From NCBI RefSeq assembly GCF_057098645.1, contig NZ_CM169472.1: a DNA stretch of 64,000 nt; one strand, written 5' to 3'. The notes beneath the pieces were generated by a model. The model was given only the letters and a program-made list of their open reading frames with translations, made no database searches and was not told the origin of the DNA. Each line of letters opens with the position of its first letter. Position 1 is the first letter of the stretch. Positions 3,107 to 62,627 of the stretch are shown in pieces. The position numbers and the translations under genes are program-made.

Positions 3107-4033
3107 ATGATGAAAATAGAGCCTTCAATTTTGCCTTCTCTTGCCTGGTTTGCGCTGATTGTTCGTGCCGGCAGTTTTTCCAGAGCCGCTTCTGAAATGG
3201 GTATTACGCGGGCCGCATTGTCTCAGAATTTAAAATCTCTTGAGGAACGTCTTAACACCAAGCTGATATACCGTACGACCCGCAATATGTCGCTTACTGA
3301 GGAAGGACAGCGTCTGTATGAAGTGCTGGTGTCGGCTTTGGGGCAAATTGATGATGTTTTGAAAGATGTTGGTGATACCCAACTTGAACCTACAGGCCTG
3401 TTGAGAATAAATTCCTCCCGTGTTGCAGCACGGATGCTTGTTGAGCCTCATATTGGCGAGTTTCTTACTCGTTACCCCAAAACAAAGATAGAACTCATTA
3501 TGGATGACGGTTTATCTAACATTATTGCGGACGGCTGTGATGTGGGCATACGTCTTGAGCAAGGACTGGATGAGCATATGACTGCCGTTCCTGTTTCTCC
3601 GCTTATTAAACTGGTTACTGTGGCATCGCCAGATTATTTAAAAGAACACGGTATTCCTGAAACGCCTCAGGAACTGAGTAACCATAATTGCCTTCGGTTG
3701 CGGCATAAAAGTAGCGGTGCACTCTCTGCATGGGAGTTTTCTAATGTTGTGGGGGGTAATGAAGAGTTCGAAATAGAGGTTTCAGGTAAGTATATTTCTA
3801 ATGATGACGAAAGCATGATACGAATGGCGCTGAATGGAACGGGTATCATTCAACATCTGGATTTTGCAATCGCTGAACATATCAATGCGGGCAAGTTACA
3901 GCCGATTCTTGAGGATTGGGCTGTTTCATTTCCTGGATTTTATATTTATGTTTCATCACGGGTGAGAATGCCCTCTAAAGTTCGTGCTTTTATTGATTTT
4001 ATGGTGGAGAAAAGAGTAAAAATAGAAAGTTAA
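3107..4033 (+). CDS. LysR-family transcriptional regulator
   Basis: N-terminal HTH (FSRAASEMGITRAALSQNLKSLEERL) and LysR substrate-binding region; start moved to MMK (3107) from track start 3044 to fit LysR N-terminus and AAGG RBS. Confidence 0.8.
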   Translation: MMKIEPSILPSLAWFALIVRAGSFSRAASEMGITRAALSQNLKSLEERLNTKLIYRTTRNMSLTEEGQRLYEVLVSALGQIDDVLKDVGDTQLEPTGLLRINSSRVAARMLVEPHIGEFLTRYPKTKIELIMDDGLSNIIADGCDVGIRLEQGLDEHMTAVPVSPLIKLVTVASPDYLKEHGIPETPQELSNHNCLRLRHKSSGALSAWEFSNVVGGNEEFEIEVSGKYISNDDESMIRMALNGTGIIQHLDFAIAEHINAGKLQPILEDWAVSFPGFYIYVSSRVRMPSKVRAFIDFMVEKRVKIES

Positions 4034-4173
4034 TGTTGTGTGTCAGAATATCGGTAAGAAGAATGGCGCAATCGTGAGGATACGTTTATTCATAATAAAT
4101 CTCCTGAAAGTTTAGAATTATTTTCGATACAGCCAGATTATCATTGTTACTAATAATGTGGCTAAAATAATAG

Positions 4174-7041
<2,868 letters not shown>

Positions 7042-23198: not shown

Positions 23199-24089
23199 TC
23201 AGGCTGCCAGATCATCGTTTCCGATGGAAGTATAATAAGCTTTTTCTGCTTCTGCCGGAGGAGTATGGCCCAGCCTTTCCAGCAATCGTCGATTGTTATA
23301 CCAGTCCACCCACGTGAGTGTGGCCAGTTCCACTTCTGCACGGTTTTTCCAGCTCTTACGGTGTATTACCTCCGCTTTGTAAAGACCATTGATGCTCTCC
23401 GCCATCGCGTTGTCATACGAGTCGCCTGTACTTCCTGTTGATGCCAGTAATCCGGCTTCCTTAAGCCGCTGTGTGTAGGCCAGCGATACATACTGAGAAC
23501 CTTTATCACTGTGATGGACCGTGCCGGACGGTCGACGGGCCCATAACGCCTGCTCCAGTGCATCCAGCACGAATGTCGTCTCCATGGACGATGAGACCCG
23601 CCACCCCACAATGTATCCGGCAAACACATCAATGATGAACGCCACATAGACGAAGCCCTGCCATGTGCTGACGTAAGTAAAATCAGCCACCCACAGCTGG
23701 TCAGGTCGTTCTGCCACGAACTGACGGTTTACGCGGTCGCCTGCGGCAACGGCTTTCCGGCTGATGGTCGTACGGACCTTTTTACCCCGGAGAACACCGG
23801 CAAGTCCCATAACCGCCATGAGACGTGCCACAGTGCATCTGGCCACTCTGATACCTTCCCGTAACAACTGACGCCAGACTTTACGCACACCGTATACCTT
23901 GTGATTTTCATCGTATACGCGCTGTATCTCTTTCTTCAGCCAGTCATCGCGCTGCGCACGGGCACTGCGTTTATCCGGATGATGTCGCTGTTGCTGACAG
24001 TGGTAATACGTTGACGGGGCAATATGCAGTTCGCTGCATAGCGGTCCGACCCCGTACTGCTCACGCAGCTTATCCAGCAGTGGCATCAT
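23199..24089 (-). CDS. IS3-family transposase OrfB (DDE integrase domain)
   Basis: 296 aa with integrase-core; overlaps orfA by ATGA as in frameshift-fusion transposases. Confidence 0.85.
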
Positions 24090-24412
24090 TTTTTCCAGAG
24101 GCGGTCGAACTCCGCCTTCGCAAAATAAGCGGAAGCCTGGCGAAGGATATCGTTACTGCGGCGCAGTTCACGATTTTCACGCTCCAGCTCTTTCAGACGC
24201 TGACGTTCAGCGGTGGTGAGCCCTCCATCACCGCCCCCGGTATCCCGCTCATGCTGGCGAACCCAGACACGCAGAGTCTCCGGCGTACAGCCAATCTTTG
24301 GAGCAATGGAACAAATTGTCGCCCATTGTGAGTCATATTCGCCCTGACTTTCCAGAACCATACGGACTGCCCGTTGACGGACTTCAGGGGAAAAACGAGT
24401 ATTTTTAGTCAT
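24086..24412 (-). CDS. IS3-family transposase OrfA (HTH plus leucine zipper)
   Basis: 108 aa [19 protein letters not shown]...; matches remembered IS629 OrfA. Confidence 0.85.
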
Positions 24413-40644: not shown

Positions 40645-40901
40645 CTTGTTCCCCTCTGGTTAGACATGGACGAAAGCTACTCTTACATGTGCAGACTATA
40701 GAGAAATAAAACCTGATTGAGTGAAAGGGTATCGGGTCAAAGAAACAAATATTGCACTACCGCACACTGCGAAAAGATTGTTGAACATCATTCAACAAAA
40801 AGGCGAAATACGGCGAATTAAATTTAAGCGGGTTCTTTTATCAGATTATCGTTGCTATTCTCAATTCATCGAAAACAGCCACAAAAACCAGGGGAATGTG
40901 A

Positions 40902-41507
40902 ATGAGTATAAAAAATCTACCTGCCGACTATTTATTGGCTGCACAACAGGGTGATATCGATAAAGTAAAAAACTGCCTTGCGCTGGGTGTCGATATTAAT
41001 ACCTGCGACCGTCAGGGGAAAACGGCAATTACGCTGGCAAGTTTATATCAGCAATATGCTTGCGTTCAGGCATTAATTGACGCCGGAGCGGATATTAATA
41101 AACAAGATCATACCTGTTTAAATCCTTTTTTAATTAGCTGTCTGAACGATGATTTAACGCTACTACGAATTATTTTACCGGCTAAACCCGATCTTAATTG
41201 CGTAACCCGTTTTGGCGGTGTCGGCCTGACGCCTGCCTGTGAAAAAGGCCATTTAAGTATTGTAAAAGAGCTTTTGGCGCATACGGAGATTAACGTTAAC
41301 CAGACCAACCATGTAGGCTGGACGCCGCTACTGGAAGCGATTGTGCTTAATGATGGTGGTATTAAACAGCAGGCGATTGTGCAGTTATTGCTGGAACACA
41401 GTGCCAGCCCGCATCTGACCGATAAATATGGCAAAACGCCACTGGAACTGGCGCGAGAACGGGGCTTTGAAGAGATTGCGCAGTTACTGATTGCCGCAGG
41501 TGCATAA
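40902..41507 (+). CDS. yahD: ankyrin-repeat protein YahD
   Basis: Repeated ankyrin motifs (GKTAITLAS, GWTPLLEA, GKTPLELA). Confidence 0.85.
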   Translation: MSIKNLPADYLLAAQQGDIDKVKNCLALGVDINTCDRQGKTAITLASLYQQYACVQALIDAGADINKQDHTCLNPFLISCLNDDLTLLRIILPAKPDLNCVTRFGGVGLTPACEKGHLSIVKELLAHTEINVNQTNHVGWTPLLEAIVLNDGGIKQQAIVQLLLEHSASPHLTDKYGKTPLELARERGFEEIAQLLIAAGA

Positions 41508-42410: not shown

Positions 42411-43947
42411 AATAGTCATTAAACCGAATACCTATTTTGATTCTGTCTCGCTGATGTCTATCTCCACGCGTGCAAATAAACTCGACGGCGTCGAGCAGGC
42501 ATTTGTGGCGATGGCGACCGAAATGAACAAAGGTGTGCTGAAAAATTTAGGACTGCTGACGCCGGAGCTGGAACAGGCGAAAAACGGCGACCTGATGATT
42601 GTCATCAATGGTAAATCGGGGGCGGACAACGAGCAGTTGCTGGTGGAGATTGAAGAACTGTTCAACAGCAAAGCGCAAAGCGGCTCGCACGAGGCGCGTT
42701 ACGCCACTATTGCCAGCGCCAAAAAGCATATCCCGGAAAGTAACCTGGCGGTGATTTCGGTCAACGGTCTGTTTGCCGCTCGCGAAGCGCGTCAGGCGCT
42801 GCAAAACGATCTCAACGTGATGCTGTTTTCCGATAACGTCTCGGTTGAAGATGAACTGGCGCTCAAGCAACTGGCCCACGAAAAAGGGCTGCTGATGATG
42901 GGGCCAGACTGTGGCACGGCGATTATCAACGGCGCGGCGCTCTGTTTTGGTAACGCCGTGCGTCGCGGCAACATCGGTATTGTTGGCGCATCCGGCACCG
43001 GCAGCCAGGAGCTGAGCGTCCGCATTCATGAATTTGGTGGCGGCGTTTCACAACTGATTGGCACCGGCGGGCGCGACCTGAGCGAGAAAATCGGCGGCCT
43101 GATGATGCTCGACGCCATCGGGATGCTGGAAAACGATCCGCAAACTGAAATTATCGCGCTGATTTCAAAACCTCCCGCGCCTGCGGTGGCCCGTAAAGTG
43201 CTGGAACGCGCCCGCGCCTGCCGCAAGCCGGTGGTGGTCTGCTTCCTCGGTCGTGGCGAAACGCCGGTTGACGAGCAGGGGCTACAGTTTGCTCGCGGCA
43301 GCAAAGAAGCGGCGCTAAAAGCGGTGATGCTCTCCGGCGTGAAACAGGAAAATCTCGACCTGCATACCCTGAACCAGCCGTTGATTGCGGATGTGCGTGC
43401 GCGTCTGCAACCCCAGCAGAAATACATTCGTGGCCTGTTCTGCGGCGGCACGTTGTGCGACGAAACCATGTTCGCGGTGATGGAAAAACATGGCGATGTC
43501 TACAGCAACATTCAGCCCGATCCGGAATTCCGCCTGAAAGATATCAACCGCAGCATCAAACACACCTTCCTCGACTTTGGCGATGACGACTTCACCAACG
43601 GCAAGCCGCATCCAATGATTGACCCCACCAACCGCATCAGTCGCTTGCTCGAAGAGGCGCGCGATCCAGAAGTGGCGGTGATCGTGATGGATTTTGTGCT
43701 CGGATTTGGATCGCATGAAGATCCGGTAGGCTCCACCATCGAGGCGATCAAAGAAGCGAAAGCGATCGCCGCTGCCGAAGGACGCGAGTTGATCATTCTC
43801 GCCTATGTGCTGGGTACCGATCTTGATACGCCATCGTTAGAACAACAAAGCCAGATGCTGCTTGATGCCGGAGTGATTCTGGCGAGCAGCAGCACCAATA
43901 CCGGATTGCTGGCGCGTGAATTTATCTGCAAAGGGGAGGAAGCCTGA
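42400..43947 (+). CDS. yahF: FdrA-like CoA-binding protein YahF
   Basis: 515 aa with succinyl-CoA-synthetase-alpha-like CoA-binding fold. Confidence 0.85.
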   Translation: MSVKIVIKPNTYFDSVSLMSISTRANKLDGVEQAFVAMATEMNKGVLKNLGLLTPELEQAKNGDLMIVINGKSGADNEQLLVEIEELFNSKAQSGSHEARYATIASAKKHIPESNLAVISVNGLFAAREARQALQNDLNVMLFSDNVSVEDELALKQLAHEKGLLMMGPDCGTAIINGAALCFGNAVRRGNIGIVGASGTGSQELSVRIHEFGGGVSQLIGTGGRDLSEKIGGLMMLDAIGMLENDPQTEIIALISKPPAPAVARKVLERARACRKPVVVCFLGRGETPVDEQGLQFARGSKEAALKAVMLSGVKQENLDLHTLNQPLIADVRARLQPQQKYIRGLFCGGTLCDETMFAVMEKHGDVYSNIQPDPEFRLKDINRSIKHTFLDFGDDDFTNGKPHPMIDPTNRISRLLEEARDPEVAVIVMDFVLGFGSHEDPVGSTIEAIKEAKAIAAAEGRELIILAYVLGTDLDTPSLEQQSQMLLDAGVILASSSTNTGLLAREFICKGEEA

Positions 43948-45365
43948 TGAGCCAGTCACTGTTTAGCCAACCATTGAACGTTATTAACGTCGGCATCGCC
44001 ATGTTTAGCGATGACCTGAAAAAGCAGCATGTAGAAGTGACTCAACTCGACTGGACGCCGCCGGGGCAGGGCAATATGCAGGTGGTGCAGGCGCTGGATA
44101 ACATTGCCGATTCGCCGCTGGCAGACAAAATCGCCGCCGCTAACCAGCAGGCGCTGGAGCGCATTATCCAGTCGCATCCGGTGCTGATTGGTTTTGAGCA
44201 GGCGATTAACGTGGTGCCGGGCATGACGGCGAAAACCATTCTTCACGCCGGGCCGCCGATCACCTGGGAAAAAATGTGCGGCGCGATGAAAGGCGCGGTC
44301 ACCGGAGCGCTGGTGTTCGAAGGACTGGCGAAAGATCTCGACGAGGCGGCTGAACTGGCGGCTTCCGGGGAGATCACCTTCTCGCCGTGCCACGAACACG
44401 ACTGTGTGGGATCGATGGCGGGTGTTACCTCGGCCTCGATGTTTATGCACATCGTAAAAAACAAAACCTACGGCAACATCGCTTATACCAACATGAGCGA
44501 GCAGATGGCGAAGATTTTGCGTATGGGCGCTAACGACCAGAGCGTGATTGACCGCCTGAACTGGATGCGTGATGTGCAGGGACCAATACTGCGCGACGCG
44601 ATGAAAATTATCGGCGAAATCGATCTGCGCTTAATGCTGGCGCAGGCGCTGCATATGGGCGATGAGTGCCATAACCGCAATAACGCCGGGACGACGCTGC
44701 TGATTCAGGCGCTGACGCCGGGGATTATTCAGGCGGGCTACTCCGTCGAGCAACAGCGCGAAGTGTTTGAGTTTGTCGCCAGCAGCGACTACTTCTCCGG
44801 CCCGACGTGGATGGCGATGTGTAAAGCGGCGATGGATGCGGCGCACGGCATCGAATACAGCACCGTGGTCACCACCATGGCGCGTAACGGCGTCGAGTTC
44901 GGCCTGCGGGTCAGCGGCCTGCCGGGGCAATGGTTTACCGGTCCGGCGCAGCAGGTGATCGGCCCGATGTTTGCCGGTTATAAGCCGGAAGATTCGGGGC
45001 TGGATATCGGCGACAGTGCCATCACCGAAACCTACGGTATTGGCGGATTTGCCATGGCGACCGCGCCCGCTATCGTCGCGCTGGTGGGCGGCACGGTGGA
45101 AGAAGCTATTGATTTCTCCCGTCAGATGCGCGAAATCACCCTCGGTGAAAACCCCAACGTCACCATTCCACTGCTCGGTTTTATGGGCGTACCGTCGGCA
45201 ATCGACATCACCCGCGTGGGCAGCAGCGGCATTTTGCCGGTGATCAACACCGCCATCGCCCATAAAGATGCGGGCGTCGGCATGATTGGCGCGGGCATTG
45301 TGCATCCACCTTTCGCCTGCTTCGAGAAAGCCATTCTTGGCTGGTGCGAACGTTACGGCGTCTGA
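43947..45365 (+). CDS. yahG: DUF1116-family protein YahG
   Basis: 472 aa; start overlaps yahF stop. Confidence 0.85.
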   Translation: MSQSLFSQPLNVINVGIAMFSDDLKKQHVEVTQLDWTPPGQGNMQVVQALDNIADSPLADKIAAANQQALERIIQSHPVLIGFEQAINVVPGMTAKTILHAGPPITWEKMCGAMKGAVTGALVFEGLAKDLDEAAELAASGEITFSPCHEHDCVGSMAGVTSASMFMHIVKNKTYGNIAYTNMSEQMAKILRMGANDQSVIDRLNWMRDVQGPILRDAMKIIGEIDLRLMLAQALHMGDECHNRNNAGTTLLIQALTPGIIQAGYSVEQQREVFEFVASSDYFSGPTWMAMCKAAMDAAHGIEYSTVVTTMARNGVEFGLRVSGLPGQWFTGPAQQVIGPMFAGYKPEDSGLDIGDSAITETYGIGGFAMATAPAIVALVGGTVEEAIDFSRQMREITLGENPNVTIPLLGFMGVPSAIDITRVGSSGILPVINTAIAHKDAGVGMIGAGIVHPPFACFEKAILGWCERYGV

Positions 45366-45378
45366 CCTGCATGTTCAT

Positions 45379-45655
45379 GCCGGATGCGGCGTGAACGCCT
45401 TATCCGGCCTACGAATGGCGCAAGAATCTGTAGGCCTGATAAGCGTAGCGCATCAGGCATTTGTCACCATTGCCGGATGCGGCGTGAACGCCTTATCCGG
45501 CCTACAAGTGGCGCAAGAATTTGTAGGCCTGATAAGCGTAGCGCATCAGGCATTTGTCACCATTGCCGGATGCGGCGTGAACGCCTTATCCGGCCTACGA
45601 GTGGCACGAGAATTTGTAGGCCTGATAAGCGTAGCGCATCAGGCAATTTGGCGTT
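45379..45655. repeat. REP/BIME cluster, three tandem ~60-bp units
   Basis: gccggatgcggcgtgaacgccttatccggcctac ... ctgataagcgtagcgcatcaggca repeated three times; track ORFs here are artefacts of the repeat. Confidence 0.9.
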
Positions 45656-45694
45656 GGTCATAACCCCATCACCCTCTGTAGCGGACATAACAAC

Positions 45695-46645
45695 ATGAAA
45701 GAGCTTGTGGTCGTTGCCATTGGTGGCAACAGCATTATCAAAGATAACGCCAGCCAGTCGATTGAGCATCAGGCGGAGGCGGTGAAAGCCGTCGCCGATA
45801 CGGTGCTGGAAATGCTGGCTTCCGATTACGACATTGTGCTGACCCACGGTAACGGGCCGCAGGTCGGGCTGGATTTACGCCGTGCGGAGATTGCCCACGA
45901 GCGCGAAGGGCTCCCCTTAACGCCGCTGGCGAACTGTGTGGCGGATACGCAAGGTGGCATTGGCTATCTGATCCAGCAGGCGCTGAACAATCGACTGGCG
46001 CGCCACGGCGAGAAAAAAGCCGTCACCGTGGTGACTCAGGTGGAAGTGGATAAAAACGATCCGGGATTTGCCCATCCCACCAAGCCCATCGGCGCATTCT
46101 TCAGTGAAATCCAGCGTGACGAATTACAAAAGGCAAACCCTGACTGGCGTTTTGTTGAAGATGCCGGACGAGGCTATCGCCGCGTGGTCGCCTCGCCGGA
46201 ACCGAAACGTATTGTCGAAGCACCGGCCATTAAGGCGCTGATCCAGCAAGGCTTTGTGGTGATTGGCGCGGGCGGTGGCGGAATTCCTGTGGTGCGTACT
46301 GACGCGGGAGATTACCAAAGCGTGGACGCGGTTATCGACAAAGATCTCTCTACCGCGCTACTGGCCCGTGAAATTCACGCCGACATTCTTGTGATCACCA
46401 CTGGCGTGGAAAAAGTGTGTATTCACTTTGGCAAACCCGAGCAGCAGGCGCTGGATCGCGTAGATATTGCCACTATGACCCGCTATATGCAGGAAGGGCA
46501 TTTCCCGCCCGGCAGCATGTTGCCAAAAATCATCGCCAGCCTGACGTTCCTGGAACAGGGCGGTAAAGAAGTGATTATCACCACGCCGGAATGCCTGCCA
46601 GCGGCGCTGCGCGGTGAAACGGGCACCCACATTATTAAAACGTAA
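45695..46645 (+). CDS. yahI: carbamate kinase-like protein YahI
   Basis: 316 aa amino-acid-kinase fold (VVAIGGNS, THGNGPQVG). Confidence 0.9.
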   Translation: MKELVVVAIGGNSIIKDNASQSIEHQAEAVKAVADTVLEMLASDYDIVLTHGNGPQVGLDLRRAEIAHEREGLPLTPLANCVADTQGGIGYLIQQALNNRLARHGEKKAVTVVTQVEVDKNDPGFAHPTKPIGAFFSEIQRDELQKANPDWRFVEDAGRGYRRVVASPEPKRIVEAPAIKALIQQGFVVIGAGGGGIPVVRTDAGDYQSVDAVIDKDLSTALLAREIHADILVITTGVEKVCIHFGKPEQQALDRVDIATMTRYMQEGHFPPGSMLPKIIASLTFLEQGGKEVIITTPECLPAALRGETGTHIIKT

Positions 46646-59733: not shown

Positions 59734-59810
59734 GTCGGATGCGTCGCGTGGCGCATCCGACAGTTGTGCGCAGATGCCTGATGCGACGCTGGCGCGTCTT
59801 ATCATGCCTG
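59734..59810. repeat. REP elements downstream of prpE
   Basis: gtcggatgcg...cgcatccgac and gcctgatgcgacgctggcgcgtcttatca REP-type palindromes. Confidence 0.8.
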
Positions 59811-62523: not shown

Positions 62524-62612
62524 GCGTAGTTTATGCCGGATGCGGCGTGAACGCCTTATCCGGCCTACGTAGAGCACCGAACTCGTAGGCCTGATAAGCG
62601 TAGCGCATCAGG
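62524..62612. repeat. REP element pair downstream of codA
   Basis: Same gccggatgcggcgtgaacgccttatccggcctac / ctgataagcgtagcgcatcaggca unit as at 45379. Confidence 0.85.
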
Positions 62613-62627
62613 CAATTGTGTCAGTGG

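Follow-up and report, generated by a model that had tools for sequence, protein, structure and literature searches.

Class, natural variation and probable role of the three-unit REP23 array between yahG and yahI of Escherichia coli

The spacer between the yahG and yahI genes of Escherichia coli is mostly filled by tandem repeats, which raises the question of what kind of element these repeats constitute, how it varies among strains, and whether it acts on the genes at both sides or encodes something by itself. The copy described here is located in a stretch of 64,000 nucleotides of contig NZ_CM169472.1 (hereafter, the window), which matches E. coli O145 str. RM9872 with 100% identity. According to the list of open reading frames (ORFs) and the RefSeq annotation of the identical genome, yahG (DUF1116/YlbE family) occupies positions 43947-45365 of the plus strand, with its TGA stop codon at 45363-45365, and yahI (carbamate kinase family) occupies positions 45695-46645 of the same strand, leaving a gap of 329 nt. 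The upstream genes yahE, yahF (annotated as fdrA) and yahG abut or overlap, and yahJ starts 9 nt beyond yahI. The array divides two operon halves, as a preliminary description of this DNA had proposed: a packed yahE-yahF-yahG block and the yahI-yahJ pair. Within positions 45300-45700 no sigma-70-like promoter was found, nor was any intrinsic terminator (a GC-rich hairpin followed by a U tract) present on the plus strand. Since the spacer carries no promoter- or terminator-like site, yahIJ must be transcribed through the array. A literature search for the regulation of the yah operon found no paper on it. On the upstream side of these genes, yahD, which encodes an ankyrin repeat protein, appears in the annotation of this strain as two adjoining pseudogene fragments (40778-41140 and 41142-41507, plus strand).

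The array is a head-to-tail repeat extending from 45378 to 45656, inside the yahG-yahI spacer. Tandem Repeats Finder delimits it at 45378-45650, with a period of 93, 2.9 copies, 96% of matches, no indels and a score of 502, and the repeat finder detects three in-register copies of 93 nt that start at 45378, 45471 and 45564 and show identities of 100, 97 and 86%, respectively, the divergence of the third copy being confined to the sequence past its second REP. This is a tandem repeat far above chance, and both programs bear out the three-unit REP/BIME array that had been placed in this gap at 45379-45655. However, the unit size of about 60 bp given with it was wrong, since the REP pair spans 81 bp and the period of the array is 93 bp.

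Each unit begins with a Y-type REP, which a 17-nt linker joins to an inverted short REP of the Z type (Z1, 29 nt), and closes with a 13-nt linker; the third unit stops after its Z REP. On the plus strand, a left junction of 13 nt (CCTGCATGTTCAT; 45366-45378) leads from the yahG stop codon to the first REP stem. The Y-type REP of unit 1 (45379-45412) consists of GCCGGATGCGGCGTGAACGCCTTATCCGGC followed by CTAC and folds, as RNA, into a hairpin of -20.5 kcal/mol. It is followed by the 17-nt linker that runs from CTAC to GTAG (GAATGGCGCAAGAATCT; 45413-45429), which is the part of the unit with most polymorphism, by the inverted Z1 REP of 29 nt (GTAG plus GCCTGATAAGCGTAGCGCATCAGGC; 45430-45458), whose RNA hairpin has -11.5 kcal/mol, and by the 13-nt inter-unit linker (ATTTGTCACCATT; 45459-45471). 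Unit 2 contains a Y-type REP (45472-45505), a 17-nt linker (AAGTGGCGCAAGAATTT; 45506-45522), an inverted Z1-type REP (45523-45551) and the second copy of the 13-nt inter-unit linker (45552-45564). Unit 3 is constituted by a Y-type REP (45565-45598), a 17-nt linker (GAGTGGCACGAGAATTT; 45599-45615) and an inverted Z1-type REP (45616-45644) with which the array ends. The unique right flank (45645-45694) includes the translation start region of yahI and is mildly C-rich (C/G of about 1.3-1.4).

All six units of the array qualify as REPs or palindromic units, that is, imperfect palindromes of 30-40 nt with flanking GTAG/CTAC, a conserved internal mismatch and hundreds of copies per genome. Their stems and bulges align to the Rfam model of a REP pair, and a query containing the array has a median of 26 matching places per E. 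coli genome, counting shared words of at least 28 nt. RNA folding also predicts a competing long Y:Z hairpin of -37.7 kcal/mol, and the RNA of the whole yahG-yahI spacer has a minimum free energy of -156.8 kcal/mol (z = -6.8 with respect to shuffled sequences).

The published lengths of the REPs of E. coli are 35 nt for y, 29 nt for z1 and 37 nt for z2 (Corneloup et al. 2021, PMC8266576). BIME-1 elements are y+z1 pairs present in single copy and have a long L linker (about 35 nt) that often carries an IHF site, BIME-2 elements are y+z2 pairs in tandem copies with short linkers, and atypical BIMEs are chimeras that mix parts of the two classes and are present in several copies (Ton-Hoang et al., PMC3333891). 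The element between sucB and sucC has been named a BIME-2 (Sutormin et al., PMC6379681). Its Z is long, and so is that of REP325 according to the Rfam model. What we take to be the BIME-1/RIP consensus (Y-CTAC, a 35-nt linker and GTAG followed by a short Z) is found over its entire length in 5,425 of the 5,426 E. coli genomes and has a linker with a one-mismatch IHF core. The 29-nt length of the Z REP in the array, the long Z of both sucB-sucC and REP325 and the short Z of the BIME-1 consensus together identify the array as Y+Z1. Taking the short Z as Z2, and hence the array as a BIME-2, was considered and rejected on the basis of the published lengths, the sucB-sucC long Z and the short Z of the BIME-1 consensus.

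The array combines features of both classes. Its architecture is that of a BIME-2 such as sucB-sucC: tandem amplification (2.9 copies here, 1-5 elsewhere), short linkers (17 and 13 nt), no IHF site and a copy number that varies among strains. However, BIME-2 elements have by definition a Z2 of 37 nt while the Z of the array is a 29-nt Z1, and the sucB-sucC linkers measure 6 and 12 nt. With BIME-1 (RIP/RIB) the array shares the Y+Z1 composition in inverse orientation, with CTAC and GTAG at the inner ends, but BIME-1 is a single-copy element with a conserved L linker of about 35 nt and an IHF site, whereas the array is tandem, has 17 nt at that place and lacks an IHF core. The combination of Y+Z1, an "l"-like linker and tandem copies agrees with the description of atypical BIMEs. 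Under the published definitions, the array is neither a BIME-1 nor a strict BIME-2, and the atypical BIME class fits best.

The element had already been catalogued. In the enterohemorrhagic E. coli (EHEC) strain EDL933, locus X002 has been equated with yahH and REP23 and described as five repeat blocks with a 1-nt gap in the fourth (Neuhaus et al., PMC4765031), and a 2024 paper on the y-ome describes the yahH entry as full of REP23 sites (PMC11551758). The K-12 reference annotation retains yahH (b0322) as a putative uncharacterised protein, and no REP or RIP repeat features are annotated in that reference record. Both REP23/yahH of K-12 and X002 of EHEC have the location between yahG and yahI, the 93-bp Y+Z1 unit and the right junction found in the window, and K-12 also has the 13-nt left junction. 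The differences are those of alleles only: the window carries three units while K-12 has 3.9 and O157:H7 has five, and the last two strains carry a frame-breaking 1-nt linker deletion from which the window allele is free. The array is a three-unit allele of the REP23/yahH element.

Comparing copy number among strains at this site, as had been proposed earlier, revealed that the locus is polymorphic, with zero to five units. When the two flanks alone serve as the query, the locus is recovered from 5,048 of the 5,426 complete E. coli genomes. Allele classes were established in a sample of 60 rows spread down the ranking, in which the hit span was read as the spacer length; the classes were confirmed by reading one representative of each, and 11 alleles were dissected in sequence. 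Inserts of about 45 bp, devoid of any REP, were present in 8 rows, one-unit inserts of 92-103 bp in 25 rows, and a two-unit insert of 196 bp in a single row. The three-unit insert of 279 bp, as in the window, appeared in 3 rows, four units (371-375 bp; K-12 and CFT073) in 17, and five units (464 bp; O157:H7) in 3. An exact count of the REP-free allele gave 655 of the 5,426 genomes (12%). In the REP-free spacer of E. coli O166:H15 JNE21-009, which measures 94 nt, the array is replaced by a hairpin, CCCTTCTCCC-TTCT-GGGGAGAGGG. That this hairpin could be another dispersed repeat was rejected, since it is present in single copy. The left junctions, from the yahG stop codon to the first REP, are of two kinds, either 13 or 23 nt, and the right junction is constant.

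The site is also occupied in other species. E. albertii has one unit and a duplication of 162 bp, E. whittamii has about 1.6 units and Escherichia sp. E1V33 at least 3.5. The presence of the element in these three organisms indicates that the insertion is older than E. coli and that only the copy number is in flux. In E. albertii NBRC 107761 (minus strand, around 3988-4176) the duplicated segment takes in, besides one BIME unit, the 23-nt junction and about 47 nt from the 3' end of yahG, so that the boundaries of this tandem duplication fall outside the REP unit. Beyond Escherichia, Pseudocitrobacter faecalis DSM 27453 (6646-6860) possesses a Y REP and a long-Z REP at the yahG-yahI site, with a nearly identical right flank; this junction suggests horizontal sharing of the yah cluster outside the genus. 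The number of tandem BIMEs is known to differ between strains, TnpA_REP recombines BIMEs in vitro and models of unit addition have been proposed (PMC3333891). Changes of copy number at this locus could thus take place by unit-unit recombination or by amplification mediated by TnpA_REP.

Variation within the units was examined by stacking 25 units from 10 alleles, a small sample in which the units are not independent of each other. In this stack, 10 of 30 linker positions are variable versus 5 of 63 positions in the REP bodies (Fisher p = 0.005). The CFT073 allele (NC_004431.1, 569-991) has ambiguous N bases inside the array and a frameshifted yahG, and its first Y REP shows compensating changes in the inner stem, from GGCG/CGCC to GACA/TGTC.

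What could such an array do in the yah operon? The reading that we favour, and that we regard as more probable than not, is that this three-unit REP23 atypical BIME would act through RNA hairpins that would stabilise the yahEFG mRNA and would partly attenuate read-through into yahIJ. The best experimental model of this combined role is REP325, which has been studied as the source of naRNA4 and is located between yjdM and yjdN. Similarly to the array, REP325 is formed by tandem paired REP hairpins between co-oriented genes of an operon. In REP325, the mRNA of the upstream yjdM is stabilised, the downstream yjdN is lowered 8-10 fold and a ladder of truncated transcripts appears; Rho dependence is partial and is found only with the full 12-hairpin array, not with 2-4 hairpins (bioRxiv 10.64898/2026.03.23.713779). 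The same preprint reports that, genome-wide, tandem gene pairs containing REPs have raised upstream/downstream expression ratios. In addition, stable hairpins, including REPs, shield transcripts terminated by Rho from exonucleases at their 3' ends (Dar and Sorek, PMC6061677). The array shares the context of REP325 and, with its six strong hairpins, an untranslated gap of 329 nt and neither internal promoter nor intrinsic terminator, would be an intercistronic stabiliser and partial attenuator.

According to this proposal, once the operon is transcribed the six REP hairpins would act at the RNA level. They would block 3'-to-5' exonucleases and in this way stabilise the upstream yahEFG message, while the hairpins together with the long untranslated stretch would cause a partial, and partly Rho-dependent, attenuation that reduces read-through into yahIJ. 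The effect would be expected to become stronger with unit number. REPs located less than 16 nt from a stop codon have been reported to stall terminating ribosomes and to lower the expression of the upstream gene (Liang, Rudd & Deutscher 2015, as cited in PMC12306157). The 13-nt junction of the window lies within this range, and the alleles with the 23-nt junction lie outside it. The position of the first REP, 13 nt past the yahG stop codon, could therefore also stall terminating ribosomes and lower the output of YahG. Binding of gyrase to the Y REPs at the DNA level might be an additional property of the array.

Several points count against the hairpin-barrier proposal. REPs do not lengthen half-lives uniformly and their effects depend on context (bioRxiv 10.64898/2026.03.23.713779), and no clear C-rich, G-poor rut region is found in the array or right after it. 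REP325 has 12 hairpins and is a BIME-2 of Y and long Z2, while the window array has six hairpins of Y and short Z1; its orientation with respect to the direction of transcription is opposite to that of REP325. Finally, every unit number from zero to five is maintained in nature, a pattern compatible with selection on the effect being weak or absent.

Long ORFs run through the repeats, and the array might thus be thought to encode a protein. The two ORFs listed in the preliminary description, 45286-45663 and 45384-45698, do exist in the ORF list, and regarding them as spurious products of the repeat is the better reading. The period of 93 nt equals 31 codons, so any frame without a stop codon in one unit stays open through the array, as two of the three plus-strand frames do. 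The ORF at 45384-45698 (plus strand) corresponds to the frame of K-12 yahH and would give 104 aa with Arg-rich repeats of 31 aa; it shares the frame of yahG and ends in an ATGA that overlaps the yahI start. A second repeat-generated ORF (45337-45663, plus strand) uses another frame and is called as a hypothetical protein by PGAP in RM9872. Both were judged to be non-coding. A read-through of the yahG stop codon would run exactly to the yahI start (45363-45698, plus strand), and the 1-nt linker deletion of K-12 and O157:H7 abolishes this open frame from yahG to yahI.

A rival reading is nevertheless that a genuine Arg-rich repeat peptide, YahH/X002, is translated from the ORF through the REPs. 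In EHEC EDL933, ribosome footprints cover a 465-nt ORF (RPKM 56, coverage 0.61), which was claimed to be translated (PMC4765031). Many RefSeq genomes carry yahH or a hypothetical protein at this place, and in the window allele the frame shared with yahG and the end over the yahI start also count in favour. However, the default settings of Bowtie were used to map those footprints, no peptide was reported from mass spectrometry (PMC4765031), and words of at least 28 nt from the array occur at a median of 26 places per genome, which makes multi-mapping a serious caveat. The annotated ORF varies in frame, start and end between strains, its frame is shifted by the 1-nt linker indel in K-12 and O157:H7, and annotation gives no ORF to alleles with one unit or without REPs, although these account for over half of the 60-row sample. 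Variable sites show no codon-position bias in any frame, third position included (chi-square p = 0.55; 25 units from 10 alleles), and Pfam and NCBIfam have no model that reaches its cut-off for the three array ORFs, with only sub-threshold noise. Moreover, the start codon is located within the -20.5 kcal/mol hairpin and, by eye, no purine-rich ribosome-binding site precedes it. The product would have a unique C-terminus, NLALVITPSPSVADITT. A protein-coding yahH thus fails for want of a conserved frame or extent, of codon bias and of homologues outside the repeat, and we consider it very unlikely; the array ORFs are better understood as something that the repeat produces incidentally. Even less credence is given to the conjecture that, in alleles such as that of the window, ribosomes leaving yahG by reinitiation or read-through would translate across the REPs, suppress Rho attenuation and couple yahI translation to that of yahG, so that the indel and the unit number would form a heritable, lineage-specific switch or rheostat of the YahEFG:YahIJ ratio.

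The matches to naRNA4 (RF02564) raise a different possibility, namely that units of the array give rise to HU-binding RNAs with two hairpins that bridge cruciforms and condense the chromosome, a nucleoid-condensing model that was originally proposed in PMC4550694. Two matches of 78 bits each, above the gathering score of 59.5 bits, are located on the minus strand at 45433-45502 and 45526-45595, and the 13-nt inter-unit linker of the array is identical in 9 of 13 positions to the REP325 "l" linker. However, this strand is antisense to the operon, and in the sense direction the score of 53.9 remains below the threshold. In the RF02564 model, a 13-nt linker connects the hairpins of Y and Z, and the Z hairpin of the array is 7 nt short of the model. 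Because the model is simply a Y REP, a linker and a Z REP, any REP pair with a related linker scores, and the match at the array is a generic REP-pair match. Besides, a 2026 preprint reports REP325/naRNA4 without nucleoid compaction, without a stable ternary complex and without HU-dependent REP-REP contacts (bioRxiv 10.64898/2026.03.23.713779). That preprint, which found no change in nucleoid volume, shares the author Sankar Adhya with the original study (PMC4550694). A naRNA4-like function of this array is, in our opinion, extremely improbable. Elsewhere in the window, a Y/Z1 REP pair in single copy whose 16-nt linker is unrelated (62534-62615) and a REP of the long-Z type that follows a Y-like hairpin (59737-59810) score below the naRNA4 gathering score. 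Another Rfam match, to the ALIL pseudoknot (RF01497; 120 bits, 24015-24131, minus strand), marks the frameshift element of an insertion sequence of the IS3 family.

The main rival to the hairpin barrier concerns selection rather than mechanism and overlaps with it: the array could be a neutral, selfish repeat, a by-product of REP/BIME proliferation by TnpA_REP, slippage or unequal recombination at an intergenic site that tolerates it, whose effects on the yah genes would be incidental and unselected. We hold this to be possible, though clearly less probable than the hairpin barrier. The range of zero to five units among E. coli strains, with all classes common, agrees with it, as do the two left junctions and the E. 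albertii duplication, which drags along the 3' end of yahG and looks like sloppy amplification. The yah genes are, in addition, uncharacterised members of the y-ome, and yahG is frameshifted in some strains. On the other hand, the site was occupied before E. coli split from E. albertii and E. whittamii, the comparable REP325 array has a measurable effect on its operon, and the REP bodies are near-invariant while the linkers drift, a pattern that gene conversion could also explain.

Functions exerted by the DNA itself seem less probable still. Cruciform extrusion, or binding of gyrase to the Y REPs, could make the array a topological buffer between the two gene blocks, which we rate as rather unlikely. 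The array has three canonical Y REPs, and gyrase cleavage sites are over-represented, independently of transcription, in a subset of BIME-2 elements, mainly at Y REPs (PMC6379681). However, this enrichment concerns Y+Z2 elements, of which only a subset is cleaved, while the array is Y+Z1, and the listed rows of the supplement contain no entry for yahG, yahH or yahI (PMC6379681); gyrase binding here is thus plausible but unproven. As for IHF, whose binding had been suggested earlier for this array, the Y+Z1 composition and the Y-CTAC ... GTAG-Z1 orientation are indeed those of a BIME-1/RIP element. The suggestion finds no support in the linkers, which measure 17 and 13 nt, the former against about 35 nt in BIME-1, and in which, as in the spacer as a whole, the IHF core (WATCAANNNNTTR) is absent from both strands even when one mismatch is allowed, while the L linker of genuine BIME-1 elements, used as a control, does score for this core at one mismatch. 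As the array is, moreover, tandem and BIME-1 single-copy, an IHF-binding element is the least probable of all these readings, to the point of being negligible.

Beyond annotation hygiene, the importance of this real but ordinary and already catalogued element is small. The preliminary description of it was right for the most part, its errors being the unit size and the IHF proposal, while the gyrase and regulatory roles that it named are drawn from the class of elements. Its practical value lies in the correction of its class to a tandem atypical BIME of Y+Z1 and in the recognition of the ORFs and of the naRNA4 match as generic consequences of REPs. A repeat period that is a multiple of three generates long ORFs that pipelines call repeatedly, each time in another frame, and the locus also illustrates that a score above an Rfam gathering threshold may reflect nothing more than a generic REP pair. 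With regard to function, the natural allelic series of 0-5 units, combined with stop-to-REP spacings of 13 and 23 nt, offers a ready test set for REP arrays as tunable regulators in 3'-UTR and intercistronic positions.

Apart from the chromosomal locus, the yahI part of the flank-only query matches, without the yahG part, 226 places in E. coli plasmids with about 95% identity, for instance in the 192-kb plasmid NZ_CP098193.1. These matches indicate that a closely related gene of the carbamate kinase family is plasmid-borne.
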